DNA from: Coriobacteriaceae bacterium
GTDB taxonomy: Bacteria; Actinomycetota; Coriobacteriia; Coriobacteriales; UMGS124
Direction of reading: 5' to 3'
Length of the DNA: 64,000 nt
Assembly: GCA_019421015.1 (NCBI GenBank)
Contig: JAHZGC010000015.1
Span: 15,795 to 79,794, forward strand
Shown: positions 1,700-49,224 of the stretch, in pieces
How the letters are laid out: each line of letters begins with the position of its first letter
How positions within the stretch are numbered: the stretch's first letter is position 1
Notes under the pieces: generated by a model
Seen by the model: only the letters and a program-made list of their open reading frames with translations
Databases searched by the model: none
Told to the model about the DNA's origin: nothing
Made by a program: the position numbers and the translations under genes

Positions 1700-3532
1700 T
1701 TACGCCGTCGCCAGCCGTGCGGCACCTTCGCCGGCAATGCGGCCGAAGACCGTGATGTCGGCCACGGCGGTGGTGCCCAGGCGGTTGGTGCCCATGATGC
1801 CGCCGGTCACCTCGCCGGCCGCGAACAGGCCGGGAATGACCTCGCCGTCCTCGTTGATCACGTGGGCGTCGCGGTCGATCTGCACGCCGCCCATGGTGTA
1901 GTGCACGGTGGGCGTTACGGGGAAGGCCACGTAGGGGCCCTCGCCGATGGGGAACATCTGGGCGCGGTAGCCAAACTGGCTGTCGGAGTTCTTTTCGACG
2001 TCGGCGTTCCAGGTGGCCAGGGTCTGGGCCAGCCCCTCGGGGTCGATGCCAAAGGGCTCGCAGACCTCTTCCAGGGTCTCGCCGATCACCCAGGTGCCGT
2101 TGGCGTACATGGTGGCCGTCTCGTCGTAGGTCTCGGGGGTGTAGCCCTCGGCGGCCGCGTCGGCCTCGGTCATGACCATGTAGCCCACGCCGCCCTCCTG
2201 GGCCAGGATGCCCTTGCTCACCACGTCGCGGCGCTCGAGCTCCTCCACGAAGCGCTGGCCCGCGGTGTTCACGAGCACGGCGGTGCCGCTGGTGCGCACG
2301 CCGCCGCAGTCGAGCATGGTGCCGTCGGTGGTGCTGCCGTAGGGGTGGGTCTGGATCCACTCCATGCCTACCAGGTTGGCGCCCAGCTCGGTGGCCAGCG
2401 CGATGCCGTCGCCGTCGGCTCCGCGCGAGTCGGTGCAGCGGTAGCGTTCGTCGAGCTCGGGGTCCCACTGCGAGCGCATCTGCACGTTGGCACCGAAGCC
2501 GCCGGTGGCTAGCACCACGGCCGGGGTGGCCACGGTGACCTCCTCGCCGGTGAGCTTGTCCTCCACCTTGACGCCGGTCACGGCGTCGGCCTCGTCGGTC
2601 AGGATCTGGCTCACGCGGGCGTCGTTGAACATCTGGACGCCGGCTGTGCGGGCCTTCTTGGTCAGATGCACCACCGCGCCCGCACCGTAGTCGACCGGGC
2701 AGGTGGAGCGGGCGCAGCTGTGGCCGCCGTCCTGCACCACAAAGGAGTACCAGGGCATCCCCACGTTAAAGGTGAGCCAGTTAAAGGAGTCCAGGGCGCC
2801 GTCGCACAGGGTGTGCACCAGCTCGGGGTCGCCCAGGTTGTCGCCGCCCACGAGCATGTCCTCGGCCAGGGCGTCTGCACTGTCCTCGATGCCCTTGCGC
2901 TGCTGGGCCCAGCTGCCGGGGGCCGCGTAGCCAAAGCCCGAGAGCGCCGTGCTGCCGCCAAAGATGTCGAGCTTCTCCAGGAGCACCACCGACGCCCCCG
3001 CCTGTGCCGCGCTGATGGCTGCGGCCAGGCCTGCGCCGCCGGAGCCCACCACCACGACGTCGGCCTGCTCGGGGATCGCGGCCTCGCGGGTGCGCTCGGC
3101 CTTGGGGCGCTTCTCCCACTCCGAGGTGTCCTCGCCGGCATCCTCCAGGGCCGCGGCGATGGCGGCCTTGTAGGCAAAGCTCGTGATGGTGGCACCGCTC
3201 ACGGAGTCGACGTTCAGGGTCTGGTCGCGCAGCACGAGCTCGCGGATGATGTCCTGGGCCGCGGTGCCCACGCTCAGGGTCTCGTGGGAGCGTAGCTCGT
3301 GGATGCGCACGAGTTTTCCGTCCTCGAGCGACACCTCCACGGTGAGGTCGCCGCCCTTGCCCTGGCCGGTGCCCACCCCGCCGTAGAAGCCGGGCGTGGC
3401 CGTGGCGTCGGCGCTCTCGTCGGCATAGGCGGCCGAAGCGGCCCCGAGGGCACAGGTCCCGGCGAGGGCCGCGGCCCCCGTCACGAACGAGCGGCGCGTG
3501 GTGGGGCAGGCGGGTGCGATGCGGTGCGTCAT
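1700..3532 (-). CDS. Tat-signal flavoprotein reductase: FMN-binding domain plus FAD-dependent fumarate/urocanate-reductase-like domain
   Basis: ORF 1700..3655, with the start trimmed to ATG 3532 (GGAGAG upstream). Twin-arginine signal TTRRSFVTGAAALAG. FMN_bind-type flavinylation motif DSVSGATITS. FAD motif VVVVGSGGAGLAAAISAAQAG. C-terminal GLFAAGEVTGGIMGTNRLG as in FrdA/flavocytochrome c relatives. Confidence 0.85.
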   Translation of the reverse strand: MTHRIAPACPTTRRSFVTGAAALAGTCALGAASAAYADESADATATPGFYGGVGTGQGKGGDLTVEVSLEDGKLVRIHELRSHETLSVGTAAQDIIRELVLRDQTLNVDSVSGATITSFAYKAAIAAALEDAGEDTSEWEKRPKAERTREAAIPEQADVVVVGSGGAGLAAAISAAQAGASVVLLEKLDIFGGSTALSGFGYAAPGSWAQQRKGIEDSADALAEDMLVGGDNLGDPELVHTLCDGALDSFNWLTFNVGMPWYSFVVQDGGHSCARSTCPVDYGAGAVVHLTKKARTAGVQMFNDARVSQILTDEADAVTGVKVEDKLTGEEVTVATPAVVLATGGFGANVQMRSQWDPELDERYRCTDSRGADGDGIALATELGANLVGMEWIQTHPYGSTTDGTMLDCGGVRTSGTAVLVNTAGQRFVEELERRDVVSKGILAQEGGVGYMVMTEADAAAEGYTPETYDETATMYANGTWVIGETLEEVCEPFGIDPEGLAQTLATWNADVEKNSDSQFGYRAQMFPIGEGPYVAFPVTPTVHYTMGGVQIDRDAHVINEDGEVIPGLFAAGEVTGGIMGTNRLGTTAVADITVFGRIAGEGAARLATA

Positions 3533-3676
3533 GGTGTTCTCTCCAATCGTCGATGTGCGTTTGTGCGCGGGTTCGGGTGCGAGCTCCGCGGCCCGGTGGG
3601 GGCGTGGCGTCGCTTGCTGGCCACAACGGTAGGACAGAGGGTCTAGACAAAGCATCGGTTGTGGGACGATGGGTGA

Positions 3677-3724
3677 GCTTATTTGCCTAAGCAGGTCTAT
3701 AAGCGTCTAAACATGCAGGTAGAT
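3677..3724 (-). promoter_or_regulatory. Candidate promoter/operator box upstream of the 1700-3532 reductase (site 1 of a recurring motif)
   Basis: The plus strand reads GCTTATTTGC-N13-TAAGCGTCT-N4-ATGCAGGTAGAT. The site upstream of the 7160-9808 gene (9914-9962) is nearly identical. In gene sense it reads ATCTACCTGCAT..AGACGCTTA..GCAAATAAGC and ends about 145 nt before the ATG. Confidence 0.4.
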
Positions 3725-3891
3725 GGGCTGATAAGTGCGATGTCTAGGCTGCGCTCGCTCCCGTCGCTGGGCCCCGTATCCCGACCTAACCCGACTCCTC
3801 GGCGCACAGACTTACGCGGCTGCGCTACCATGCCACCGAGAGAGGCGGGAGTGCGCCGGGAAGGCGACGTCCCGCAGGGGAGGAAGGCATC

Positions 3892-5289
3892 GTGATCCAG
3901 AGTCTGTACAAGAAGCTCAAGTCTATCCCGCTGGTCCTTCTGGGCCTGGGCCTGTGCCGCGCCTGGTCGGTGGCCATGTTCTCGGGGGCGTATCCCAACG
4001 GCTTTGCGGGTGCGTTCATGCTCTTTGCGGCGAGTACCGCGGTGGGAGGCCTGGTGCTGGCCGCGCTGGCTCCAAGGGTTTCTCCGCTGTACAAGAACAA
4101 GCACCTGCTGCTTGCGGCCGCCCTGCTCATGGGGCTGGGGACCGCCGGCTTCGGGCTGTTTTCCTTTGCCATCCCCAACCAGGCCATCTTGGCCGTCATG
4201 ACCGTGGGGGCGGGCCTGGGCGGCGCGGTGCTGCAACTGGCTTGGTGCGAGTGCCTGGGATGCTTCAACCCCATGCGGGTGTGCCTGTACCACGCAGGGG
4301 CCATCGGGCTGGGGGCCGTGCTTGCGATTCTGATCTATGGGTTGGTGCCGTTGTGGGTGGCGGTGGTTTCGGTGATCCTGCCGCTCGTCTCGCTGCTGTG
4401 GTGTCACGAGGGTATCCAGCTTGCCGACGAGCGCGACCTGCCCACCGGTCGCAAAGACTCCGATGCCGTGACCTTTCCATGGAAGCCTGTGGCGCTCATG
4501 GCGGTGTGCGCGTTCGCTTCGGGGTTCAATAACATGGACATGCAGGGCGACGGCATGAACCTCATCGGCTCGCTCGGTGAGCTCTGCGTGATGGCCGCCG
4601 TGGTGCTGGGCGTGCTGGCCGACCGGCGGCGCTTCAACTTCGCCTCGCTCTTTAAATTCGCCATGCCGCTTACGGTGATCAGCCTCATGCTCGTTGTGCC
4701 GGCGCTGGGGTCGATGGCGCCCATTTCGGCGTTCTGCTACTCGGGCGGCGACGCGGCACTCTCGGTGCTCGTGATGGTCATCATGTGCAGCCTGGTGTAC
4801 CGCTTCGGCGTGAACGCCGTGCGCCTGAACGGCATCGAGCGCGGCGTGCGCTACCTGTGCCTGGCGGGCGGCTGGATGCTGCGCGAGCTTGTGGCGGGCG
4901 CGCTCACGGCCGAGGCGCTGGCCGTGGTGCAGGTCGTGGCGCTCGCCCTGGTGGTGGTGGCGTTCGTGGCCATCTTCTACACCGAGGACAGCCTGGCGTC
5001 GCTGTGGGGCGCGGCCGTGAAGACCGCCGAGGTCACCCCCGAAGCAGAAATGCGAGCCGCCCGGGCCATCGCGGCCGGACGACTCGCCAAGGAGTACGGT
5101 CTGACCCCGCGCGAGGGCGAGGTCCTGCAGCTGCTCGCCCAGGGGACGAGCCTGCTCGATATCGAGAAGAGCCTGTTCATCGCCCAGGGGACGCTGCGGG
5201 CCCACATCAACCACATCTACACCAAAATGGACATCCATAGCCGCGACGAGCTGCGGGGCCTCATCGAGAAGGCCGTGGAGGCGGTGTAG
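3892..5289 (+). CDS. Membrane-anchored LuxR-family transcriptional regulator (multi-TM N-terminus, C-terminal GerE/LuxR HTH)
   Basis: GTG start with GGAGGAAGG upstream. The N-terminal ~380 aa are hydrophobic. The C-terminus is YGLTPREGEVLQLLAQGTSLLDIEKSLFIAQGTLRAHINHIYTKMDIHSRDEL, a LuxR-type HTH. Divergent from the flavoprotein gene. Confidence 0.85.
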   Translation: MIQSLYKKLKSIPLVLLGLGLCRAWSVAMFSGAYPNGFAGAFMLFAASTAVGGLVLAALAPRVSPLYKNKHLLLAAALLMGLGTAGFGLFSFAIPNQAILAVMTVGAGLGGAVLQLAWCECLGCFNPMRVCLYHAGAIGLGAVLAILIYGLVPLWVAVVSVILPLVSLLWCHEGIQLADERDLPTGRKDSDAVTFPWKPVALMAVCAFASGFNNMDMQGDGMNLIGSLGELCVMAAVVLGVLADRRRFNFASLFKFAMPLTVISLMLVVPALGSMAPISAFCYSGGDAALSVLVMVIMCSLVYRFGVNAVRLNGIERGVRYLCLAGGWMLRELVAGALTAEALAVVQVVALALVVVAFVAIFYTEDSLASLWGAAVKTAEVTPEAEMRAARAIAAGRLAKEYGLTPREGEVLQLLAQGTSLLDIEKSLFIAQGTLRAHINHIYTKMDIHSRDELRGLIEKAVEAV

Positions 5290-5340
5290 GGGAGCGGGGA
5301 TGTGGAGGGGCGGCGGGATGACGCCGAAGACCCAGATACA

Positions 5341-5535
5341 TCCGCATAATCAGGGTTCTGGATAGGCGCGGGAACCGCGTTGGCGGTCGCGTTGGGCGAC
5401 AGAGAGCTCGAGTGGCTGGGGACGTTCGATAAAACCGCAGGTGAGCAGGGTGTTGGCTGCAGGGGGCTTCTCGCCTCGCGGTCGAGCCGGGAACATCGGG
5501 GCCCGGCGGCCTATCCAGAACCCTGATTATGCGGA
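5341..5535. repeat. MITE-like palindromic element with perfect 27-bp terminal inverted repeats
   Basis: TCCGCATAATCAGGGTTCTGGATAGGC at 5341-5367 is the exact reverse complement of 5509-5535. The element is 195 bp, with AACCGCAGGT (5433-5442) at the dyad centre (5438). It lies between convergent gene ends. No clear target-site duplication. Confidence 0.7.
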
Positions 5536-5616
5536 AAGATCTCGGGTTTTAGAACGTGCCCGATTCCCGGTTGCAAAGAGTGCTTGCCCGATTCCCGGCT
5601 TGCCTCGTCCGCGAAC

Positions 5617-6390
5617 CTACCTTCCGGTACCGCCCACGGCCGCCAGTTCGGCTACCACCTGGGCCGCCGCCTGCGGGTACAGCCGCGCCCTGCGTACCAG
5701 GGGAGAGGCCCCCAGCTCGTCGGAGAACCTCTCCGCCCACGGTCGCATGTGCTCGGTCGCAAAGGCGTCGCGCTCCGCCAACGCCGCGTCGCAGGAAGCC
5801 CGGTCGCCCCTGTCGAGCGCGTCGCAGGCTGCGTAGGTGAGCTCGGCCAAAAACGCCAGCTCAAAGGCCAAGTGATCGTCGGCCTCGTGGGGGTAACCGC
5901 TGGGGAGAAACCCGCGGGCCGCATAGGCCCTGCGCACCGCGAGCGTCTCGGAGCCAAAGAGCGCGCCGTCGGCCTCGAGGTAGCACGACCCCCAGGGCTG
6001 GGCTGACCTGGCCCCGGGCCTCTCAAGCAGCACGGTGTACTCGTCGCCAAGCCTGTCGAGCGTCGCGGCGGGGTCGCGCCCCCAGGCGTCGGTCAGCTCG
6101 GCGAGGGCGCGGGGAAGGGGGCCGTTGTCGGCCACGGGCACCTCGCCGTTGGCCACGGCGCCCCCGTCGCTCGGCACGTCGGCGCCGGCGCCCTCGAACA
6201 CCTGCGCCGCCTCGGGCCGGCCCAGCGCCGCGAGCAGCCCCTCGCTCGGCTTTTGGCCGAACACCGCCGCCAACAGCTCAAAGGCTCGTCCCTGCCGCTC
6301 GAGCTCTGCCGCCTGCGCTGCAGAGAAAACTCCGACCTCCGCGGTCTTCTCACCGCACGCCCTCTCGTCGCGTGCCCCCGCCGCGCCCAT
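5617..6390 (-). CDS. TorD/DmsD-family molybdoenzyme maturation chaperone
   Basis: Motif YPHEADDHLAFELAFLAELTY and the overall length fit TorD-like redox enzyme maturation proteins. The start ATG overlaps the stop of the upstream Fe-S gene (TAATG), which suggests translational coupling. Confidence 0.75.
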   Translation of the reverse strand: MGAAGARDERACGEKTAEVGVFSAAQAAELERQGRAFELLAAVFGQKPSEGLLAALGRPEAAQVFEGAGADVPSDGGAVANGEVPVADNGPLPRALAELTDAWGRDPAATLDRLGDEYTVLLERPGARSAQPWGSCYLEADGALFGSETLAVRRAYAARGFLPSGYPHEADDHLAFELAFLAELTYAACDALDRGDRASCDAALAERDAFATEHMRPWAERFSDELGASPLVRRARLYPQAAAQVVAELAAVGGTGR

Positions 6391-7013
6391 TACGCGATCT
6401 CCTCGGGGGAGTTGCCCAGGCTTCCCTCACCGCCCAGCGCGCAGAAGCGCGAGGTGCCGATGACCATCGAGGGTCCGGTGGCCTCGGGCGACGCCAGCGG
6501 CTCCAGCCATGCGCCCTCGCCGTGACGCTCGCGCAGCTCGTCGATGTCGCCCCAGTCCAGGCAGCGCATGAGGCAGGCGTCCACGCAGGCGGGGTTCTGG
6601 CCGGCGTCCACCAGGTCGCGGCACAGGTCGCACTTGCCCATCACGCCGGCGGCGCTTATGAGGTGCGGGGCGTTGTAGGGGCAGGCCTGGGCGCAGGCGC
6701 CGCAGCCGACGCAGATTTCCTGGTCCACGTAGACAATGCCGTCGTCGCGCTTGGTCATGGCACCGGTGGGGCAGGCGGCCACGCAGGCCGGGTCGGCGCA
6801 GTGCATGCACGAGACCGACACGCTGTAGGCGTACACGCCGGCGGGCACGGGCACGCCGCTGCCGTTGTCCTGCCAGCTGCCGACCTCCCAGTCGATGACG
6901 CGGCGGTACTTCTCACCTGCGGCGGAGCCGTTCTTGTCGATGCAGGCCGCCATGCAGGCGCGGCACGACCCGCAGCGGTCGGCGTCAAAGTAGAACCCAA
7001 GCTGCTTGCTCAT
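6390..7013 (-). CDS. 4Fe-4S ferredoxin-type electron-transfer subunit (DmsB-like)
   Basis: Several Cys clusters: CGSCRACMAAC, CMHCADPACVAACP, CVGCGACAQACP, CDLC...C. The N-terminus MSKQLGFYFDADRC is typical of DmsB-family subunits. Confidence 0.85.
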   Translation of the reverse strand: MSKQLGFYFDADRCGSCRACMAACIDKNGSAAGEKYRRVIDWEVGSWQDNGSGVPVPAGVYAYSVSVSCMHCADPACVAACPTGAMTKRDDGIVYVDQEICVGCGACAQACPYNAPHLISAAGVMGKCDLCRDLVDAGQNPACVDACLMRCLDWGDIDELRERHGEGAWLEPLASPEATGPSMVIGTSRFCALGGEGSLGNSPEEIA

Positions 7014-7040
7014 GAAAGTCGTCCTTTCGGGTATGGGGAG

Positions 7041-7085
7041 AAAGGCCTCGTGGCCAAGGGCCGGTCCTGAGGTCGCGAGGCCTTT
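7041..7085. other. Intercistronic stem-loop between the molybdopterin and Fe-S subunit genes
   Basis: AAAGGCCTCG (7041-7050) and CGAGGCCTTT (7076-7085) form a perfect 10-bp inverted repeat around a 25-nt loop, inside the 146-nt gap between the two genes. Confidence 0.5.
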
Positions 7086-7159
7086 TCCGCCGGGGGTTTA
7101 CGAAAACGTGGCACCGTTCCTGGAAGCGAAGCGGCGTCCTTGGGAACGTGGCGCTGTTC

Positions 7160-9808
7160 CTACTCGATTACGGGTATCACAGGGGGCTGCAGGTAGTCGG
7201 GCTCGAGCGGCTCGCCGTCCCAGGGCTCCACGTTCACGAGCACGGTGTTCGACGCGCACTGCCCCGCGCCCACCAGGATGCCGCCGGTCAGGGTGTTCAC
7301 GTTGCAGCCGCGGTCCACGCCGGTCTGTTCGTCCAGGGCGGTCCAGTTGCCCTGGCCCACCAGGACTACGCCCGGCATCACGCGCGGGGTGGTGCGCACG
7401 CGGCGCAGCGCCTGGCCGTGGTCGTTGGAGAGCAGCGCGGTCTGGCCCGACTCAAGGCCGGCGGCCGCGGCGTCGGCGGGGTTCATGAACAGGTCGTTCG
7501 AGAAGATCTCGTTCAGGCTCTTGACGTTGGGCATGGCCGAGTGGGCCTGGCGCGCCACGTGGATGCCGAGCATCTGGAAGGGGTGCGCGCCCTTCTGCTT
7601 GGCCTTCCAGTCGGCAAAGGTCTCCTCGTAGCCCTCCACGGCCGGCATGTACTTGGGGATGGGATCGATGGGCGTGGTGCCGTAGTTGTCCATGCGCTCT
7701 ACCAGGGCACGCGAGAAGATCTCGAGCTTGCCGGTGGCCGTGTCCACGGGGCACCCCTCGGGGTCGGCCTTGAAGTCGGCCAAGGCGCACCACTCCAGGG
7801 CGTCTCCCTCGCTGCGGGGCACCTGGTAGCCGCCGTTGGCGTGCAGCTCCTCCAGCGGCACGCGGCCGTCGTGGGGCTCGCAGGTCAGACCGTACTTCTC
7901 GATGTCCTCGGCGCTCACCTGGGCCAGCGGCTCCCAGCCCGAGCCGTCGGGGAGCATGACTTGGGCCTCCGCCACGAGCATGGCGGCGTCGGTCTCCTGG
8001 TCGGCCGGGGCCACGATAGCCGGGTCGATGCCCAAACGCTTGGCCAGCTCCACGTCGACCCACCAGTCGGGCTTGGCCTCGAAGCAGGGCTCTACGATCT
8101 TGCTGCCCCATACCACGGTCTCGGCGTTGATGGCGTCGGCGTAGCCGTTATCGCGCTCCCAGGGGGTGGCGATGGGCAGCACGATGTCGGCAAACTGTGC
8201 GTCGGGGCACATCACGAAGTCCGAGACCACCACGAAGTCCACCTTGCCCGGGGCCCGGTAGGCCTCGATGGCCGTGGTCTGGTCCACGTTCTGATTGAAC
8301 TGGCCGCTGGGCCCGATCTTGGCCAGGCACTTGATGTTGACCGTGCGCTCGCCGCGGGTGAAGTCGGTGTGTTTGCCGGTGAGCACAGCCTTCCAGAACT
8401 CGGCGTAGGCGATGCCGTAGTACTGCTCGGGGTCGTAGATGCCGTGCTCCAGCGCCCAGTCGCCGCGCGGCAGCGTGCAACCCACGTTCTCGATCCAGGG
8501 GGTCACGCCGTCGCCCAAGGCCACGAGCGAGCGGCTGCCCACCACGCCCTTGGAGCCGTCGGCGGTGCCTACCTCGGCGCCCGGCTCGCCCACGTTGCCG
8601 GTCATCCAGCCCACGGTGTAGAGCATGTGGGCCGTTTGGGCGCCGTTCCAAGTGCGGCCGATGGCCTGGCCGGCCTTGAGGGTCATGGGCTTCACCGTGG
8701 CCATCTGCTCGGCCAGGCTGCGGATCTGGGCCGGGTCGGTGCCGCAGATCTCGCTGGCCCACTCGGGGGTCTTGGGCACGCCGTCGTTGACGCCCAGGAT
8801 GTAGTCCTTGAAGTTCTCGGAACCATCCTCGCCCTCGGGCATGTGGTCGGCGTCGAAGCCCACGCAGTGGGTGTCCAGGAACTCCTGGTCCTGCCAGCCG
8901 TTCTCGATCATGGTGTAGGCGATGGCGGCCAAAAGCGCGCCGTCGGTGCCGGGGCGCACGGGCACCCATTCGTCGGCCAAGCTCTGGCAGCTGGGGCTGA
9001 ACCACGGGTCGACCACGATCACCTTGGCACCGGCGTCCTTGGCCTGGCGCAGGTAGTGGGTGTTGCTGCCACCCAGCGAGTAGATGGGGTTCAGGCCCCA
9101 CAGCACGATGAGCTTGGCCTTGCGCAGGCTCAGGCGGTCATTGTTGCCCTTGCCGTAGCTGCCGTTCACCGTGTTGCCCACCAGGGCCCAGCCGCCCTGG
9201 GACTGCTGGCCCCAGATGCTCGTGTAGCCGCCCGAGGCGGAGAGGATGCTCACCGGCGCGAGGCTCGGCGAGGCGATCGAGAGGTCGCCGTAGGTGGAGC
9301 GGATGCGCGTGAACTCGCTCGCGATGTAGTCGAGCGCCTCGTCCCACGAGATGCGCTCCCACACGTCGCGGCCGCGCAGGGAGTTGTCGCCCGTACCGCC
9401 CGGCTCCCAGTGCTTGCGCTTCATGGGGTAACGCAGGCGGTCGGTGCCGCATACGAGCTGACGCAGGCTGTGGCCCTTGACGCAGCTGCGCTGCTGGGGA
9501 AAGTCGGGGGTGTCGGGGTGGCTGTCGTCGGTCTTCTGGCGCACCACCAGGCCGTCGACCACGTAGGCCTTGTTGATGCAGCCGCAGTGGCAGGTCATCC
9601 AGCAGCCGGCCGTGCGCCACTCGCCGCCGTCGAGGTCCAGGGCGTCGAGCCGCTCGTCGGTGGCCTTCTCGAGCGCACGGGCCGAAGGCGCGTTCACGAG
9701 CGTGGCCCCTCCCAGGGCCGCCAATCCAGCCACGAAGTTGCGACGGGTCAGATGGGGTACGCCGGAGGCGGTGGTGCTATTGCTTTGCGTGGGTGCCGTA
9801 GGTGCCAT
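7160..9808 (-). CDS. Tat-signal molybdopterin oxidoreductase catalytic subunit, DMSO-reductase family (DmsA-like)
   Basis: ORF 7160..9874, with the start trimmed to ATG 9808 (GAGGAG upstream). Signal LTRRNFVAGLAALGGATLV. N-terminal Cys group GCWMTCHCGC (C-x3-C-x3-C, DmsA type). Large conserved MopB-like body, followed by Fe-S and TorD-like genes. Confidence 0.85.
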   Translation of the reverse strand: MAPTAPTQSNSTTASGVPHLTRRNFVAGLAALGGATLVNAPSARALEKATDERLDALDLDGGEWRTAGCWMTCHCGCINKAYVVDGLVVRQKTDDSHPDTPDFPQQRSCVKGHSLRQLVCGTDRLRYPMKRKHWEPGGTGDNSLRGRDVWERISWDEALDYIASEFTRIRSTYGDLSIASPSLAPVSILSASGGYTSIWGQQSQGGWALVGNTVNGSYGKGNNDRLSLRKAKLIVLWGLNPIYSLGGSNTHYLRQAKDAGAKVIVVDPWFSPSCQSLADEWVPVRPGTDGALLAAIAYTMIENGWQDQEFLDTHCVGFDADHMPEGEDGSENFKDYILGVNDGVPKTPEWASEICGTDPAQIRSLAEQMATVKPMTLKAGQAIGRTWNGAQTAHMLYTVGWMTGNVGEPGAEVGTADGSKGVVGSRSLVALGDGVTPWIENVGCTLPRGDWALEHGIYDPEQYYGIAYAEFWKAVLTGKHTDFTRGERTVNIKCLAKIGPSGQFNQNVDQTTAIEAYRAPGKVDFVVVSDFVMCPDAQFADIVLPIATPWERDNGYADAINAETVVWGSKIVEPCFEAKPDWWVDVELAKRLGIDPAIVAPADQETDAAMLVAEAQVMLPDGSGWEPLAQVSAEDIEKYGLTCEPHDGRVPLEELHANGGYQVPRSEGDALEWCALADFKADPEGCPVDTATGKLEIFSRALVERMDNYGTTPIDPIPKYMPAVEGYEETFADWKAKQKGAHPFQMLGIHVARQAHSAMPNVKSLNEIFSNDLFMNPADAAAAGLESGQTALLSNDHGQALRRVRTTPRVMPGVVLVGQGNWTALDEQTGVDRGCNVNTLTGGILVGAGQCASNTVLVNVEPWDGEPLEPDYLQPPVIPVIE

Positions 9809-9913
9809 GGGTCTCCTCTTCCTCTTGTTGCCGTTGGTTCGCTCTTGCTGCGATCCGGTGCCCACAATAGGCAAGGGCGTCCGGCGGCGAATCAGCGACG
9901 GGAGGTGGAGGTG

Positions 9914-9962
9914 GCTTATTTGCTACTTACGGGCGTGTAAGCGTCTGTTTATGCAGGTAGAT
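9914..9962 (-). promoter_or_regulatory. Candidate promoter/operator box upstream of the 7160-9808 operon (site 2)
   Basis: GCTTATTTGC-N14-TAAGCGTCT-N4-ATGCAGGTAGAT, matching site 1 (3677-3724) block for block. The ATGCAGGTAGAT block starts 143 nt upstream of the ATG. Confidence 0.4.
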
Positions 9963-10059
9963 TGTGGTGTTGAGAGAGGCGTTCAGATTGTGGGCTCCTA
10001 GCCGGCGCGCGCATGGCCGGCGTGTGGGCTAGGCGCCCTCTCCCGTAGGCCTCCTCCCA

Positions 10060-10283
10060 TGGACGAAATCGGAGGAATGCGACTTTGCAGGGGGTGCGCG
10101 TGGACGAGATCGGAGGAATGCGACGCGGTTTTGGGAGTCTGCCGGCGGATCGCGGATAAGCTCTCCCCTTTTACCAGGGGAGATACCCGCATCACCAATC
10201 GTGCTACCGACAAACCACGTCGCAAACTTCCTATCTCGTCCACTGCTGTCCTGCCAAAAGTCGCAAACCTCCGGTTTCAGCCA
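10060..10283. repeat. Symmetric four-unit array (2 direct + 2 inverted 24-bp units)
   Basis: Units: TGGACGAAATCGGAGGAATGCGAC (10060-10083), TGGACGAGATCGGAGGAATGCGAC (10101-10124), and the inverted copies 10219-10242 and 10260-10283. Spacing is 41 bp in both arms. Outer and inner pairs share one dyad centre (10171.5), which falls in the hairpin TCTCCCC..GGGGAGA. Confidence 0.7.
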
Positions 10284-10382
10284 GCATCGATCCCGACCCG
10301 TCTCTTTGGACCACCCACGACGTGTCTGCTGGCCCTCGGTCCACATTCTTGGCTACGGGGCGGCGGTTTATCGCGGCGTTCG

Positions 10383-11510
10383 TTACTTCTGGGCGGTAGG
10401 CGGCTCGGCACTCAGGATGAGCTTGACCTGGTCTTTGTCGAGTTCGTAGTTGAAGTACTCCTTGTAGAAGTCCTCAACCGCCTGCTCCTCGTCGAAGTCC
10501 TTGAAGAGGTCGGGGTGGATGACGGCGGCCGCCCACTGGACCTGCAGCAGGAGCTCGGCCCCGGGTTCGCCCCAGGGGGAGGCACCGGCAGGGTTGGTGT
10601 AGACATGCTTGTTCTTAACGGCTTTGGTCTGGGCCCATTCCTTGGAGTCCATGATGGCCTGTGCCTCGCCGGGGGTTGCCGTGAGGATGTAGTCGGGGTT
10701 GAGGGCGGCCAGATCCTCGACGGCGCACGGGGCGTCGGCGGTCCCTGAGCCGCCGGTGTTGGCGTTTGCAGCCCCGGCTGCGCTCAGCCATTCATCGGCG
10801 ATCGTGCCCGCGCCTGCGACGACGCCGGTTGCCACCGAAGGCCCGTAGAGCACGGTCGGGCGGTCCGACTCGTCCACGGTATCGGTCTGCTGCTTTATGG
10901 CGTCAAGCATCTTGGTGAGGGCGTCGGTGTATTTTTGGGCGTTCACCTGAGCCCCTTTGCCGATGATCTGGGCGCTGAGCTCGATGGACTGAGCCATCTG
11001 GTCAAACGTGGCGAAGGAGCAGTCGACCAGGGGGATACCCTGCTCCTCCAAGGCCTTGCGCAGCGCGTCTCCCTTTGCAAAGGCCAGCTGGGGCCCTTGG
11101 TCGGCCACGGAGGCGGCTTCGGCGCTCGCATCCTGGTGAGCGGGGATCGTGGCGGCGTTCTTCATGTTGGGGCACATCTCGTACATCCAAGGGTGGGTGT
11201 CGCGGCTCACGGGGGTGGCCACCAGGCCTTTGGCACCGTCGAGCACGATGTCTATGGAGGCATGGTCGGCCCAGGTGTCGGCGTAGGAGCTTACGGCGTC
11301 GGGCAGCTCCACGGCGGTTCCTCCCATGTCGGTGACGCTGGTGGGCGTGGCGTCGCCGACCTGTCCCTCGGTTGCATCCGCAAGGGCTGCGTGCGGGCGG
11401 GCGGAGGCGACGACGGCGGCCAGGCAGATGCAGCCGCTTGCGGTTATGAATCCGCGGCGCGTTGTTAGGGATTGGGCGGCCAGTGAAGTGGTGTGGTCGG
11501 ACGTGCTCAT
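10383..11510 (-). CDS. Orphan solute-binding protein (ABC-type periplasmic binding fold, siderophore/cobalamin-like class) with a Tat-like signal
   Basis: The C-terminal part of ORF 10383..12197, with the start set at ATG 11510. The N-terminus is MSTSDHTTSLAAQSLTTRRGFITASGCICLAAVVASA. The body has SBP-like features (DRPTVLYG, LNPDYILTAT, KNKHVYTNP). No permease or ATPase gene is nearby. Confidence 0.6.
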   Translation of the reverse strand: MSTSDHTTSLAAQSLTTRRGFITASGCICLAAVVASARPHAALADATEGQVGDATPTSVTDMGGTAVELPDAVSSYADTWADHASIDIVLDGAKGLVATPVSRDTHPWMYEMCPNMKNAATIPAHQDASAEAASVADQGPQLAFAKGDALRKALEEQGIPLVDCSFATFDQMAQSIELSAQIIGKGAQVNAQKYTDALTKMLDAIKQQTDTVDESDRPTVLYGPSVATGVVAGAGTIADEWLSAAGAANANTGGSGTADAPCAVEDLAALNPDYILTATPGEAQAIMDSKEWAQTKAVKNKHVYTNPAGASPWGEPGAELLLQVQWAAAVIHPDLFKDFDEEQAVEDFYKEYFNYELDKDQVKLILSAEPPTAQK

Positions 11511-38678: not shown

Positions 38679-38755
<77 letters not shown>

Positions 38756-38989
38756 GTAAATTCGCAGGTCAGAGGCTTAGAGCTTCTGGCCTGTTTTCGT
38801 ATGGTATCCACTCGACATCCGTTTATGGAATCCGGGTTCTGACGGCTGCTCCAACGGGACGGCAATGCAGAGAAGTTCAGGGCGGACCATGGTGAGCCCC
38901 ATTCTCACGCCTTGACCAAAAGGGTTGACAAGTACTGCGGTCTTACTCCCGAGAACCGCCGAGAGCATGGCGACCTCCTGCTCGCCGCA

Positions 38990-39290
38990 CACATGGGGCG
39001 GCGTGCGTCTGCCTCCACGCTTTTCTGGCTTTGTTCTTTATCCCACTTGAAGAGCAATGTCCCACGACGTGCGTCGGTGGGTGGTATGCACTACACCAGC
39101 CCCGAGAATATCCACGGGGTCATCGGCCCGCTTTTCCAGGATGCCCTGCGTGGGGAGCCCGATGGCATCCTCACCAAGCAGAACCCGTCGGCCAGGACCG
39201 GGGCGCCCAGAGCATATCGGGACAAGCTGGGCAGCCTTTCGTTCCTCGACCCGTTCCTCGACCCCACCTGCGATTCGGGCAACTTTTTCA
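38990..39290 (+). pseudogene. Fragment of an MmeI-like/type IIG N6-adenine DNA methyltransferase-restriction gene
   Basis: Within track ORF 38912..39379: RRASVGGMHYTSPENIHGVIGPLFQDAL....KLGSLSFLDPFLDPTCDSGNFF. This is the HYTSxxNI...PLFxDxL block plus SAM motif I (DPxCGSGNF-like). There is no continuation of the enzyme on either side, and the region is visibly less G+C-rich. Confidence 0.5.
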
Positions 39291-39744
39291 CTCGGCACCC
39301 TGCTGACGGCCGACACAGCGATCGGGAACGCCAGTGGCTCCCATGTCTCCAACATTTCCCGGGCTCTCGGTACGCCTAGGGTGGGGGAAAGCGGTTCTTC
39401 CATGCGTCGCTCGATGTCGTTGGAGGGTGTTGCGAGGGTATCGCCGTATAGCCTCACGAGGAGGCGGCTCGGCGTTGGGACGGCCGTTTGGCCGTTCGGA
39501 GTGCCCGAGAAGAAAGACCTCGGGGGATTTCGGACGAGGGCCCCGGACAGAGAATCGAGATACGGTGAGGCGCGGCAACACAGGTCCTGGCGTCAGGGCC
39601 GCGCCCCACCAGCCCGCGGAGATTGGCTTGCTTGGCAAGCGCCAGCCAAGTCTGATGCCCGGTGCCACTGGTTTCGCAAAGGTGTGCAGGATAGACATAC
39701 GCCCTGTTCTGGCTGCGTGTTGCTCCGGCTGCCAATGTCTGTCG

Positions 39745-40068
39745 TTAGTGGAAGACGGTCCCATGGTGGTAGTGCTCTTCGGCCATGGACTTCGCCCGCT
39801 CCACGGCGTCCCTAACCTCATCTAACGGCACCGTAGACTCGGCGATGTTGTCTACCCAGCACCAAATGTCATGTTTACCATCCCCGGGCGTAGAGACTTC
39901 GATGGTGAACGTAACGCAGACGGAATAGCCGTTTCCGCACACGGAGGGCAATGCGGTAACGCTGTAACAACCGCCGCTGACGTCGGCGAGCCAACAGTCA
40001 TGCAGGTCATGCACATCATCCCAGCTCAGGCTACTGCCATCCGAGTTCCAAGTATCAGATTTATTCAC
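39745..40068 (-). CDS. Hypothetical small protein (107 aa)
   Basis: GTG start preceded by GGGAG. Lies in the less G+C-rich remnant region. No recognisable motif. Confidence 0.35.
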   Translation of the reverse strand: MNKSDTWNSDGSSLSWDDVHDLHDCWLADVSGGCYSVTALPSVCGNGYSVCVTFTIEVSTPGDGKHDIWCWVDNIAESTVPLDEVRDAVERAKSMAEEHYHHGTVFH

Positions 40069-40273
40069 AATGCTCCCAGCTTTAGTGATTCAAAATGGCA
40101 TTGTACGTCCATACAATACTGAGTGATATTAAAATGTCTGGTGGGAGTTGTCCAGGTGGTCCCACGATGATGACGGCCGAGAACGTTGCGATGGGGGACG
40201 AGAGCGCCGCTGACACATGTGCAAGCATGTGTTTGTATTCTTTGAGCGTCCTAGCGCGGTGACCCCGGGCCCC

Positions 40274-40981
40274 TTACACCCACGCGAAGTTCTCCACCCC
40301 CGCGCCCAGCTCAAAGTGCAGCTTCACGATGCCCAGGTCCACGGCGGAGTAGGGGCCGCCCGTGGACCGCAGCGACACACGGGCCTTCTCTCCGGCCGCC
40401 GCGCCTTTGATCAGCTCGATCTTGAAGTTCTGCTGGTTCATCGCCGTTGGAGCCAGAAGGGCCGCCGCCACGCCGGCGTCGAACCATGCGGGTCGCTGGA
40501 TTCCCGCCGCCGCGGGACTCACCTCGTCGGCGCCCTTGCTCTTGCGCGACATGCCCTGGGTGGTGCCGTGCCCCAGGGCCACCACCAGGCTCAGCTTGTT
40601 GCCTCGGTCCACGGCCTTTTTTACCAGCCGCTTTTTAAACGTAAGGGCTACCCAGCAGCTGTTGAGACCCAGCGTTTGGGCCAGCAGCACCAGGCGCTCC
40701 CCGTAGTAGCCGCAGCGCTCGTCGAGGTCTGGGGCGTCGGGACCGGCGAGCACCAGGTAGTTGCGCACGTTGGTGAACTTGCCATAGTGGGCCAAGAGCG
40801 AGTCAAAGGCCTTGGGTTCGTTGCAGACGAGCTTGATAGACAGGCCGCTCTTGCCGTTGCAGCGCTGGATCTCGGAGCGCAGGGTGGCTTGGTCTGCGAC
40901 GCTTAGGGGCTCGTCGGTAAAGCTGCGCACCGAATGGCGCGTCCTCATGGCCTTGAGCAGGGCGGGGGTGGTTGTCTCCAT
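40274..40981 (-). CDS. Nitroreductase-family flavoprotein
   Basis: RTRHSVRSFTDEPL N-terminal nitroreductase signature. LLAQTLGLNSCWV. ATG 40981 (METTTPALL) is preferred as the start over 41044. Confidence 0.75.
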   Translation of the reverse strand: METTTPALLKAMRTRHSVRSFTDEPLSVADQATLRSEIQRCNGKSGLSIKLVCNEPKAFDSLLAHYGKFTNVRNYLVLAGPDAPDLDERCGYYGERLVLLAQTLGLNSCWVALTFKKRLVKKAVDRGNKLSLVVALGHGTTQGMSRKSKGADEVSPAAAGIQRPAWFDAGVAAALLAPTAMNQQNFKIELIKGAAAGEKARVSLRSTGGPYSAVDLGIVKLHFELGAGVENFAWV

Positions 40982-41101
40982 GGAAATCTCTCTAGGTGGG
41001 GCAAAGGCTCCCTGCTCGGTGCTTCTGGTGGTGTGCATGTGCAATCTTCCCCCTGTCAGTATTGGCTGCGCTCCACCCTGGACGAGGGAGGACCAACGTA
41101 T

Positions 41102-42397
41102 CTAGTTATTGCCCGCTCCGTTAGGGCGGATTTCCTGCCTGTGGATCGCGTGCCGATTTGTGGTGTATGAGGGGGCCGGGGCCTCGGGCCTCTCCCAGGC
41201 CCTGGCCCCCGACTCGGGGGAGAAGACCCTGTTGTGGGTCCAGGCGTCCTCCTCCTCGAGCATGACGGCCCCCACGAGCCTCATGAGGCTCTCCCTGGAG
41301 GGGAACGACCGCACCGAGCGGCAGCGGCGCTTTATCTCGCGGTTCGCGCGCTCCTGCACGTTGTTCGTGCGCACCCGCCTCCAGTGCTCCCCGGGCAGCG
41401 AGAGGTACTGCAGGGCGTCGTCTCGCGCCGCCTCCAGCAGCTCGGCGCAGCCGGCCTCGCCGGCGCCGCGCATGGCGTCGCAGGCGAGGCCGTAGGCCGC
41501 CCTGCACACCATCGCGTCCCCCTCCGCGAACACGGCCTTGGCCAGCTCGCGCACCAGGCCCGCGTTCCTCGCGGCCTTGACCTTGGCCGACAGGTTGCGC
41601 TGCAGGTGCACCGTGCAGCGCTGCCAGGCGCAGCCCTGGAAGACCTCGCGCAGCGCCCTGACCAGCCCCCCGTGGTCGTCGGAGACGCACAGGACCAGCC
41701 CGGAGAGGCCCCGGGCGCGCACCGAGGCCAGGAAGGCCCTCCAGTCGTCGTAGGACTCGGTGTCCACGCAGTCCAGGCCCACCAGGCGCTTGCGGCCGTC
41801 CTCGCCCAGGGCGATGGCCGTCACGACGGCCTGGGAGACCGAGCGGCCCCCGACCCTGCACTTCACGTAGGTGGCGTCCACCCACAGGTAGCAGTGGCGC
41901 TGGTCGTCGAGCGCCCGGCCCCTGAGCTCGTCGACCTGGGCGTCCAGCTCGGCGGTCGGTCTCGACACCTCGGAGGCCGACAGCGAGGAGACCCCCAGCG
42001 ACTGGGCCAGCAGCGACATGTCGCGGGTGGAGACCCCGTTGACGTAGGCCTCCACCACCAGCGCGGCCAGGCCGGCCTCCACGCGCGACCACCTCGTGAG
42101 GATCGACTCCGGGTAGTACGTCCCGCGCCTCAGCTTGGGCACGTCCAGCTCCACGTCGCCCGGGGACGTCTTCAGCGAGCGCGTCCGGTAGCCGCTGCGG
42201 CTGTTGGCGCGCGCCTCGGAGCGCGCCCCCCAGGGCGCCCCGCACAGCGCGTCGGCCTCCGCCGCCATCAGCGCGTCTATCGCCAGCCTCAGCACCCGCG
42301 CCCCGAACTCGCGCAGGTCGCAGCACTCCGACATCAGCGACATCAGCGCCTCGCCCGCGTCGGGGCCGCCCTGTAGTACACTCTGCAACGCGGTCAT
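41102..42397 (-). CDS. IS256-family (mutator-type) transposase
   Basis: 431 aa with family hallmarks: VSTRDMS, YLWVDATYVKCR, VSDDHGGLVRALREVFQGCAWQRCTVHLQRN, TNNVQERANREIKRRCRSVRSFPS. The ORF reads through the left inverted repeat. Its last 14 codons are encoded by flanking DNA. Confidence 0.9.
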   Translation of the reverse strand: MTALQSVLQGGPDAGEALMSLMSECCDLREFGARVLRLAIDALMAAEADALCGAPWGARSEARANSRSGYRTRSLKTSPGDVELDVPKLRRGTYYPESILTRWSRVEAGLAALVVEAYVNGVSTRDMSLLAQSLGVSSLSASEVSRPTAELDAQVDELRGRALDDQRHCYLWVDATYVKCRVGGRSVSQAVVTAIALGEDGRKRLVGLDCVDTESYDDWRAFLASVRARGLSGLVLCVSDDHGGLVRALREVFQGCAWQRCTVHLQRNLSAKVKAARNAGLVRELAKAVFAEGDAMVCRAAYGLACDAMRGAGEAGCAELLEAARDDALQYLSLPGEHWRRVRTNNVQERANREIKRRCRSVRSFPSRESLMRLVGAVMLEEEDAWTHNRVFSPESGARAWERPEAPAPSYTTNRHAIHRQEIRPNGAGNN

Positions 42398-42512
42398 CTT
42401 CCGGTCCTTTCCTCGTCACCCAAATCCAACGACGATTCTAGGCCGGCCGGGCCGCGCGAGGGGGGGGAGGGGGCATGCCCCCTCCCCCCTCGTACACCAC
42501 TTCTCGTCACAC
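41146..42512 (-). mobile_element. IS256-family insertion sequence (~1.37 kb)
   Basis: Imperfect terminal inverted repeats at 41146-41175 (..GCGTGCCGATTTGTGGTGTATGAGGGGG) and 42485-42512 (reverse complement GTGTGACGAGAAGTGGTGTACGAGGGGG), with a 16-bp core GTGGTGTAYGAGGGGG. Flanked directly by 14-bp direct repeats TTCCTGCCTGTGGA (41132-41145 and 42513-42526). Confidence 0.75.
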
Positions 42513-42522
42513 TTCCTGCCTG

Positions 42523-42766
42523 TGGACAGTATCAAGACTTTCTTGACCGTTGTGCCCCATTGGCGGTCCTCTTTGGACGGAATCGTGACTTTCTCGACCG
42601 AATTCGTCAACACTTCGACAACTGTTGCAGTAGAACCGCAGGTAGACAGGGTGTACGTTCTTGACTACAGGGGGAGGGGGATCGGAACCGGTCGAGAAAA
42701 TCGCGGTTTCGTCCACAGACCGCCCCTACACGCCCGGAACGGTCAAGAAAGTCGCCATCTCGTCCA
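42523..42766. repeat. Symmetric four-unit array (2 direct + 2 inverted 26-bp units), related to 10060-10283
   Basis: Units: TGGACAGTATCAAGACTTTCTTGACC (42523-42548), TGGACGGAATCGTGACTTTCTCGACC (42574-42599), and the inverted copies 42690-42715 and 42741-42766. Spacing is 51 bp in both arms, with one shared dyad centre at 42644.5. AACCGCAGGT (42634-42643) ends at that centre. Confidence 0.7.
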
Positions 42767-42918
42767 GGGCTTGCCTTCAGGACGGAGCGCATCCATGGAT
42801 ATATCCCGACGCATGTAATCGGCGGAGAGGCGCCCGCCTGCACAAAAGCCGGGCGGCCTCGCGAAGGTCTGCGCTGTTGGGCGACCTATGCGCGTGATAC
42901 GTGGACACGACCAACTTT

Positions 42919-42953
42919 GTTTGATACCATACGTTTGATACCTAACGTTAGGT
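42919..42953 (+). promoter_or_regulatory. Probable MarR operator
   Basis: Direct repeats GTTTGATACC (42919-42928 and 42933-42942), the second overlapping a perfect 14-bp palindrome ACCTAACGTTAGGT (42940-42953). The palindrome ends 27 nt upstream of the MarR ATG. Confidence 0.5.
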
Positions 42954-42979: not shown

Positions 42980-43444
42980 ATGGACGCTTCCCTCACCTGT
43001 GCCAGCGACTCCGGAGTACCGTCGACCCTGGCCCTCCTCCAGCAGTTTCGCCGCTGCGCCCACCTGCAGCGCCACACCTCGGCCCCCCACGGCGGAACGC
43101 GCATCCTGATCAAGCTCCTCACCAACGGTCCAATAACCCAGCGCGCCCTTGCCGACCTACTCGAGCGCACGCCGGCCACCCTGAGCCAGCAGCTCGAGCC
43201 CCTGGAGCAGGCGGGCCTTATCGAGCGCGCGCCGCTCGAGACCGATCGGCGCACCATGGTCGTGCGGCTTACGGAGTCCGGCGCGACCGCCGCCCATGAG
43301 GCCCAGGCCTGGCGTCAACAGGTGGCCGACGAGCTGTTCGGGCAGCTCGACCCTCGGGACCGCCGCGACCTCCTGCGCATCCTCGCAGACCTCGAGTCCT
43401 CCTGGCGCGCCCGGGCGGCCGGCGACGGAGAGGCCTCGCGATGA
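42980..43444 (+). CDS. MarR-family transcriptional regulator
   Basis: ATG 42980 after GGAGGA. ILIKLLTNGPITQRALADLLERTPATLSQQLEPLEQAGLIERAPLETDRRTMVVRLTESG is a winged-helix MarR core. Its stop overlaps the next start (ATGA). Confidence 0.8.
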   Translation: MDASLTCASDSGVPSTLALLQQFRRCAHLQRHTSAPHGGTRILIKLLTNGPITQRALADLLERTPATLSQQLEPLEQAGLIERAPLETDRRTMVVRLTESGATAAHEAQAWRQQVADELFGQLDPRDRRDLLRILADLESSWRARAAGDGEASR

Positions 43445-49014: not shown

Positions 49015-49224
49015 CGTGCGGGCAGAAATCCGAACTTTGCGACTCGGTCAGGGGTGCCTGTGGCAGGCAACCTGCGGGCCCCACGGTGCCCCTGGCCACC
49101 AAAAAGCCCGGGCGCGTGTGGGCGTCCGGGCTTGGACAAAGTGACTTCCTTACGGGCAGCGCTTCCTTGCGGGCGCGCTTTTCTGCGCCTCGGCCTTCGC
49201 ACGCGCCGGTCTTTGCGCGCGTCC

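Follow-up and report, generated by a model that had tools for sequence, protein, structure and literature searches.

The window analyzed here is a 64-kb stretch of Coriobacteriaceae DNA. It comes from an Eggerthellaceae-like organism with a G+C content of 66%, for which metagenome assemblies are the only source, and is rich in molybdopterin and flavin reductase genes that are accompanied by LuxR-type regulators. It carries only two arrays of TGGAC-headed repeats, A1 and A2 (Table 1). A1 is situated upstream of a DmsA-like gene (7160-9808, minus strand), at a distance of 252 bp from its start codon, and downstream of a Peripla_BP_2-like gene (10383-11510, minus strand), at 100 bp from its stop codon. 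A2 is located between a gene encoding a TM1586-type nitroreductase (40274-40981, minus strand) and a MarR-ABC operon that starts at 42980. In the window, an IS256-family element is inserted on the nitroreductase side of A2; in strain L190, which does not carry this insertion sequence (IS), A2 is found 167 bp upstream of the nitroreductase start codon. The coordinates, sequences, spacings and shared centers that the initial annotation had assigned to both arrays were reproduced to the base, both by reading and with a repeat finder.

Table 1. Features of the two arrays and of their surroundings, in coordinates of the 64-kb window
Feature	Position	Strand	Remarks
Promoter-like block upstream of DmsA-like gene	9932-9993		GGCGTGTAAGC (reverse complement GCTTACACGCC), then TAAG; conserved at four orthologous loci
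Array A1	10060..10283	.	224-bp imperfect palindrome; four TGGAC-headed units, heads outward
A1 outer-left unit	10060..10083	+	TGGACGAAATCGGAGGAATGCGAC
A1 inner-left unit	10101..10124	+	1 mismatch to outer-left unit; 41 bp from outer unit
A1 central hairpin	10162..10183	.	TCTCCCCT-TTTACC-AGGGGAGA; 8-bp stem, 1 bp off array center
A1 inner-right unit	10219..10242	-	TGGACGAGATAGGAAGTTTGCGAC
A1 outer-right unit	10260..10283	-	TGGCTGAAACCGGAGGTTTGCGAC; head degenerate
IS256-family element (Transposase_mut)	41144..42515	-	~130-bp internal deletion; inserted at A2 outer head
Array A2	42523..42766	.	244 bp; four units TGGAC-N8-GAYTTTCTYGACC, 51-bp period, 78-nt arms
A2 outer-left unit	42523..42548	+	first 2 nt overlapped by IS target duplication
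A2 inner-left unit	42574..42599	+	
A2 inner-right unit	42690..42715	-	best internal dyad, GGWCGARA-N9-TYTCGWCC; opposite-strand score 15
A2 outer-right unit	42741..42766	-	
Possible solitary degenerate unit	49020..49043	+	GGGCAGAAATCCGAACTTTGCGAC; intergenic; score 20, weak

The spacing within A1 is 41 bp in both arms, and its outer and inner pairs are both centered on 10171.5. Palindromy extends over nearly the whole length of this array, which folds at -129 kcal/mol (z -8.7). The unit heads of A2 lie at 42523(+), 42574(+), 42715(-), and 42766(-) around a single center at 42644.5; here, palindromy is confined to the arms, the center is non-palindromic, and the fold has a z of -4.5. A1 and A2 have the same inner head-to-head span, 142 bp, and periods that differ by exactly 10 bp. 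Two nested pairs on one center, in two arrays, are far beyond chance, and shuffled sequence yielded inverted repeats of array quality 4-15 times less often. An extra inverted pair (TTTGGACC ... GGTCCACA) at 10307-10343, in the stretch that separates A1 from the upstream gene's stop codon, may be a decayed further unit pair, or may have arisen by chance.

The units of A1 and A2 share a common frame, which consists of TGGAC-G-A-R-A-Y, six free bases, WWT, two or three bases, and GAC. As had been noted initially, the heads TGGACGAGAT and TGGACGAAA are present in both arrays; near-matches to them number 15, against 4.5 expected, and seven of the 15 fall within the arrays. We made a position-weight matrix from the eight A1 and A2 units and scanned the 64-kb window with it, which returned only the eight array units (scores 29-36) and the look-alike at 49020, and shuffled sequence gave nothing above about 12. 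When the units of a third array (A3, described below) are included, the head of the family reads TGG(C)AC-S-R-R-A-Y and is followed by an A-tract/T-tract dyad, in a unit of 24-26 bp. The A2 units have an internal dyad, GGWCGARA-N9-TYTCGWCC; in the A1 and A3 units, as read from their sequences, there is a dyad of just 3-4 bp. Four of the heads read GTCCAC, and DnaA boxes were therefore considered as a candidate; these were rejected, as the trailing bases are unconserved and the conserved entity is the 24-26-bp unit.

Comparison of the two arms of each array revealed which parts of the arrays have been kept. Within A1 and A2, arm-to-arm identity is 77-85% for the units, as opposed to 35-48% (near random) for the spacers (Fisher p = 1.6e-5) and 38% for the halves of the center. 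Spacer lengths, however, are identical between arms (17/17 in A1 and 25/25 in A2). Between A1 and A2, only the unit motif and the layout are held in common, and spacers and centers cannot be aligned. Given that the units are conserved and the spacers are near random yet equal in length, the units and their phasing have been under constraint, and therefore have been retained, whether at their present sites or in an ancestral element. The suggestion in the initial annotation that the repeats are phased sites for a multimeric protein gains support from these data, as the units are kept, the spacers have diverged, spacer length is exact, and the periods of the three arrays are 41, 51, and 41 bp.

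A1 was found in about 10 strains (L001, L068, L192-L199). In an alignment of six contigs besides the window (of ten shown, with 23 carrying the gene) together with L068, strain variation was seen in only one spacer and the center, where L068 has a 1-bp deletion, and none fell within the units, although these counts are too small for significance. L063 and the IS-less strain L190 have an A2 identical to that of the window. Beyond these strains, the picture is different. Operons orthologous to that of the DmsA-like gene are found in L003, L005, and L006 (protein identity of 77%, 69%, and 64%, respectively), with a LuxR-type gene adjoining the operon in the first two and a two-component system in its place in the third, and no array units are present upstream of any of the three. 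What is kept at these array-free loci is the promoter-like block, GCTTACACGCC...TAAG, a region that is a better candidate than the array for holding the operator and promoter for LuxR. The stretch between A1 and the DmsA-like gene also has two direct repeats of the AGATTGTGG type, which lie 26 bp from each other and have recognizable counterparts only in L005, whose whole LuxR-dmsA intergenic region comprises 262 bp. The position-weight scan also detected no arrays in the other LuxR-reductase intergenic regions of the window. The link to regulation of the DmsA-like operon by a LuxR-type protein that was implied initially is therefore not borne out, since both the orthologous operons and the other LuxR-reductase pairs are array-free.

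The intergenic region of L003 equivalent to that of A1 (4243-4483) has its own unrelated inverted repeat, with 29-nt arms 133 bp apart, and a strong terminator-like hairpin. We considered the inverted repeat upstream of the L003 operon (4267-4457) as a homologue of the arrays and rejected it, as the alignment scores were within the range of shuffled sequences.

At the A2 locus, the sister species represented by L189 (ABC protein 86% identical) is collinear with the window up to 38812, just past a tRNA-Met gene (38679-38755), and again from 42920. The 4.1 kb in between (38813-42919) is a variable block without an integrase gene, in which the nitroreductase gene and A2 are accompanied by two unannotated ORFs. 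In its place, L189 has T5orf172, MarR, and TauE genes and no array units. The conserved MarR promoter region starts 150 bp beyond A2. Comparison of orthologous intergenic regions gave no conservation at either locus in sister species, and both A1 and A2 sit in segments that have been replaced between species. This absence, together with the replacement of the segments, identifies the arrays as additions to variable DNA that are specific to the lineage. Immediately ahead of the MarR gene, a promoter-like site (TGGACA-17-TACCAT) coincides in part with a tandem GTTTGATACC motif at 42919-42946; this motif is conserved in the sister species and is probably the MarR operator.

The initial annotation had stated that an IS now separates A2 from the nitroreductase gene, and this is correct, as the site is intact in strain L190. 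We defined the ends of the IS and its 9-bp duplication from contig L202, which carries the closest full-length relative (transposase 97% identical), with ends GAAGTGTGA...CACGCGATC. The target duplication in the window, CTGCCTGTG, is 9 bp long, lies at 41135-41143 and 42516-42524, and extends 2 nt into the outer-left head of A2. An apparent 14-bp duplication turned out to be this normal 9-bp duplication plus a chance extension, once the ends had been set from L202. Compared to the L202 copy, the window IS is missing about 130 bp between two GGCCCCC repeats, and the C-terminus of its transposase is altered (431 aa vs. 439 aa). The element also contains a G-rich perfect palindrome at 42462-42489, upstream of the transposase start codon. 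In another strain (L066, 1-386), an IS5-type element, of which the transposase N-terminus is visible, precedes the start codon of the nitroreductase gene by about 15 bp; the intergenic region upstream of the nitroreductase gene is a repeated IS target.

Removal of the IS from L202 revealed a third array, A3, at the reconstructed empty site. Its TGGCACC heads are located at 123, 164, and 205 (+) and at 293 and 334 (-) of this site, so that the layout is one of three direct and two inverted units, with neighbors within each arm 41 bp apart (41/41/41). The A3 units (e.g., TGGCACCAAACTCGCGCTTTGTAAGC) can be aligned with those of A1 and A2 over their first two thirds, comprising the head and the T-tract. 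The right tip of A3 is CGG, and the array lies downstream of a truncated AraC-type gene. A sigma-54 promoter or NtrC sites were considered for the TGGCAC heads of A3 and rejected, as there is no -12 element and a multi-copy layout in two orientations would make no sense.

The IS in L202 has CATGCGTGG as its target duplication, which reaches 3 nt into the head of A3's middle direct unit. Thus, both of the two IS256-like copies (window and L202) are inserted at equivalent positions of a unit head, which we estimate is not due to chance (about 1e-5, even when intergenic DNA alone is considered) if arrays are as sparse elsewhere as they are in the window. The similarity of the IS256 terminal repeats to the unit heads is within the range of shuffled sequences. 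End mimicry was therefore rejected as the cause of the targeting, which, given that the terminal repeats are unlike the units, is more likely to proceed via DNA shape or a bound protein. A head also marks the end of a 7.6-kb deletion in strain L198 (L198 1236-1650; about 2467-10065 of the window), in which the dmsA-like operon is lost in its entirety, together with its LuxR gene and half of a flavin reductase gene. At the junction, which falls between G6 and A7 of the outer-left head of A1, there is 1 nt of microhomology, and no second site was found. Unit heads are preferred points for insertion of IS256-family elements and for the endpoint of a deletion.

Searches for related arrays and for a partner gene were negative. 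The inner-head pattern TGGACGRRAY-N122-RTYYCGTCCA had 55 matches among GTDB representatives (without the source genome), all in unrelated phyla; none had full units, and we therefore take all of them to be chance matches. The matches listed for the arm pattern in JGI metagenomes were tandem coding or simple repeats, and pattern scans of viral contigs gave nothing, or one chance match in a coding region. Neither A1 nor A2 had a blastn match in plasmid and phage collections, and Rfam models gave no match on the arrays and only hairpin noise outside them. No target-site duplication of 4-9 bp was evident at the borders of A1 and A2, including the IS-less allele of the latter, and A3 has 4/5 matching positions at best. 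The window contains no cognate DDE (rve, Mu, IS21, Tn7), HUH, RAYT or recombinase gene besides the unrelated IS256 element, and L202 contains no recombinase gene. In the literature, we found no report tying such elements to the Eggerthellaceae; the known inversion repeat of E. lenta differs in sequence from the arrays.

Our best reading of these results is that A1-A3 are not operators of the adjacent reductase genes. Instead, we tentatively favor, as a distinct possibility, the idea that they are lineage-restricted foldback modules, resembling transposon ends or REP elements, that assemble a multimeric end-binding protein. A1-A3 would then constitute one family of non-coding foldback modules of about 210-245 bp. 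We infer that a multimeric, transposase- or recombinase-like protein, encoded elsewhere or now lost, would occupy the units; its location on one face of the helix would explain the periods of 41 or 51 bp. The protein would pair both arms into a bent nucleoprotein or foldback structure, and the modules may have entered, or arisen in, variable intergenic DNA, outside the conserved control region of their neighbors. Their mobility and any present-day function are likewise presumptive.

Several features of the arrays agree with such a module. A1 and A2 start with TGG and end with CCA, and, as the two arms are inverted, the module ends in 5'-TG...CA-3'. There are two direct repeats at each end of A1 and A2 (2+2) and three and two at the ends of A3, an asymmetry (3+2) that is typical of transposon ends, and the size, intergenic position and lineage restriction of the arrays fit a miniature or relic element. 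A non-autonomous element had been offered initially as an alternative to a multimeric protein bound on one face of the helix, and it fits better than the regulatory link: the TG...CA tips, the L1/L2-R2/R1 layout, the lineage-specific segments, and the 3+2 repeats of A3 all speak in its favor, although the arrays have no target-site duplication and no match to a catalogued element. The missing duplications, the tail variant that is peculiar to each array, and the absence of a partner gene from the window count against a simple MITE; with a different tail in each array, one transposase could hardly serve all three. The end-binding module is also disfavored by the occurrence of just two arrays in 64 kb, by the dissimilarity between the IS256 terminal repeats and the units, and by the lack of related arrays in the collections scanned. 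In addition, periods that differ by exactly one turn of the helix are seen more typically with cooperative regulators than with transposase end sites.

Resemblance to known systems is partial in each case. At the ends of IS21, Mu, Tn7, and Tn552, where a transposase tetramer assembles on L1/L2 and R1/R2, there are also two to three direct repeats per end in inverted orientation with TG...CA tips, the repeats keep their sequence and spacing although the intervening DNA can vary freely, and a 3+2 asymmetry is possible (PMC10122671). Each end of IS21 has two direct repeats, both of which are needed for tetramer assembly (PMC10122671). However, the period of the arrays is 41 or 51 bp, compared to about 25-27 bp in IS21, and unlike these elements, the arrays have neither a target-site duplication nor a transposase gene, measure just 212-244 bp as a whole module, and possess a unit variant of their own. 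REP elements are specific targets of five IS families, including IS256, which insert at one fixed point of the unit (PMC1525189). The arrays share with REP, BIME and REPIN sequences this targeting by ISs, as well as short extragenic clusters of direct and inverted copies, foldback, and the absence of target duplications (PMC1525189). In contrast to these, the units of the arrays appear mostly not to be hairpins, are ordered direct-direct-inverted-inverted rather than alternating, and vary strongly between arrays. MITEs and foldbacks of the Correia, ERIC and RUP type are imperfect palindromes of 100-250 bp that are intergenic, lineage-specific, and often located at the 3' ends of operons. Those elements occur in multiple copies whose interiors are homologous, usually with target duplications, whereas the arrays have unrelated interiors and share only their phased units. 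The strict four- or five-turn phasing and the precise targeting of unit heads by IS256-family elements are unusual compared to known dispersed repeats.

Four other explanations were weighed against an end-binding module. That the arrays are cis-regulatory, with four phased operators for a multimeric factor (e.g., a paralogous LuxR-type protein) that loops or wraps about 220 bp upstream of reductase genes, provides the best account of the whole-turn spacing, and would accommodate the integral-turn periods (41, 51, and 41 bp), the conserved units with free spacers, the equal 142-bp inner span of A1 and A2, their positions 252 bp before the dmsA-like and 167 bp (IS-less strain) before the nitroreductase start codon, units without SNPs across the aligned strain contigs, and the missing target-site duplications, which are to be expected of operators. 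We nevertheless consider it unlikely. Phased operator arrays of looping regulators are similar in whole-turn spacing and symmetry, but A1 and A2 are not conserved with the supposedly regulated genes in relatives: they are absent from L003, L005, L006, and L189, and the dmsA-like operon has a separate, conserved promoter block, so that the explanation fails on conservation. Furthermore, arrays are missing from the other LuxR-reductase intergenic regions of the window, 150 bp separate A2 from the start of the conserved MarR promoter region, and A3 follows a truncated AraC-type gene. An IS between A2 and the gene that it would presumably control is tolerated by the window strain, and the three different tails would require three regulators. 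It seems improbable, too, that the units are REP- or REPIN-like, i.e., mobilized or kept as single-stranded hairpins by a Y1 (RAYT-type) enzyme, with the nested inverted pairs forming one long hairpin. The units of A1 and A3 alone would form no stable hairpins, the spacers are not complementary between arms, the units are heterogeneous between arrays, and the window has no RAYT gene and only two arrays in 64 kb; on the other side stand the absence of target-site duplications, the extragenic clustering, the strong foldback (z -8.7 for A1 and -4.5 for A2), the weak dyads of the A2 units, and the insertion of the IS at the same unit point in two of two cases, as is observed for REP-targeting elements, including those of the IS256 family.

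Platforms for site-specific recombination, on which several recombinase dimers would bind phased 24-26-bp dyads in a res- or att-like site left by integrative elements, are very unlikely. The hix and res subsites are comparable to the array units in size and in having a weak dyad with an A-tract and a T-tract, A2 is found at the border of a variable block that adjoins tRNA-Met, and endpoints of rearrangements fall in the heads. However, no recombinase or integrase gene is located near any array, an att-type direct repeat of the tRNA 3' end was not seen, and the deletion junction has just 1 nt of microhomology and no second site. Finally, the arrays could be platforms for a possibly domesticated Eggerthellaceae protein that wraps about 220 bp in a helically phased complex, and serve as a new class of chromosomal landmarks, or a host- or element-encoded "landing pad", directing IS256-family insertions and local deletions to precise positions at the heads, in contrast to ordinary MITEs or operators; this, we think, is a rather improbable variant. 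We therefore retain the end-binding module as our working explanation.

The Eggerthellaceae are medically interesting gut bacteria, in which accessory reductase clusters are abundant and variable between strains. Repeat modules that mark variable DNA would give a handle on the gain, loss and rewiring of reductase loci; the arrays have drawn an IS to a fixed point, and one coincides with the endpoint of a deletion by which an entire reductase operon was lost. Should there be a dedicated binding protein, the strict four- or five-turn spacing would offer a simple, testable model of its architecture. If the arrays are ordinary relics of transposon ends, they would still warn against reading them as operators of the DmsA-like or nitroreductase genes.

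Some additional observations were made in and around the window. Two independent short-read contigs have ends near the arrays: L002 starts at 10100 of the window, at the start of the inner-left unit of A1, and L064 starts at 42781, 15 bp past A2. These ends could reflect repeats or strain heterogeneity at the sites. ARAGORN called a tRNA-Ser at 9034-9108, inside the DmsA-like coding region, which is probably a false positive, as it was not reported by Rfam. Genes for type I-E cas2 and cas1 are present at 13816-14652 of L001, about 2 kb outside the left end of the window. Between the 3' ends of a LuxR gene and a chaperone gene, at 5331-5545, there is a second, unrelated foldback of about 215 bp, in which 37-nt arms that are 89% complementary (core ATCCGCATAATCAGGGTTCTGGATAGGC) surround 141 bp; this could be an invertible segment or a MITE.
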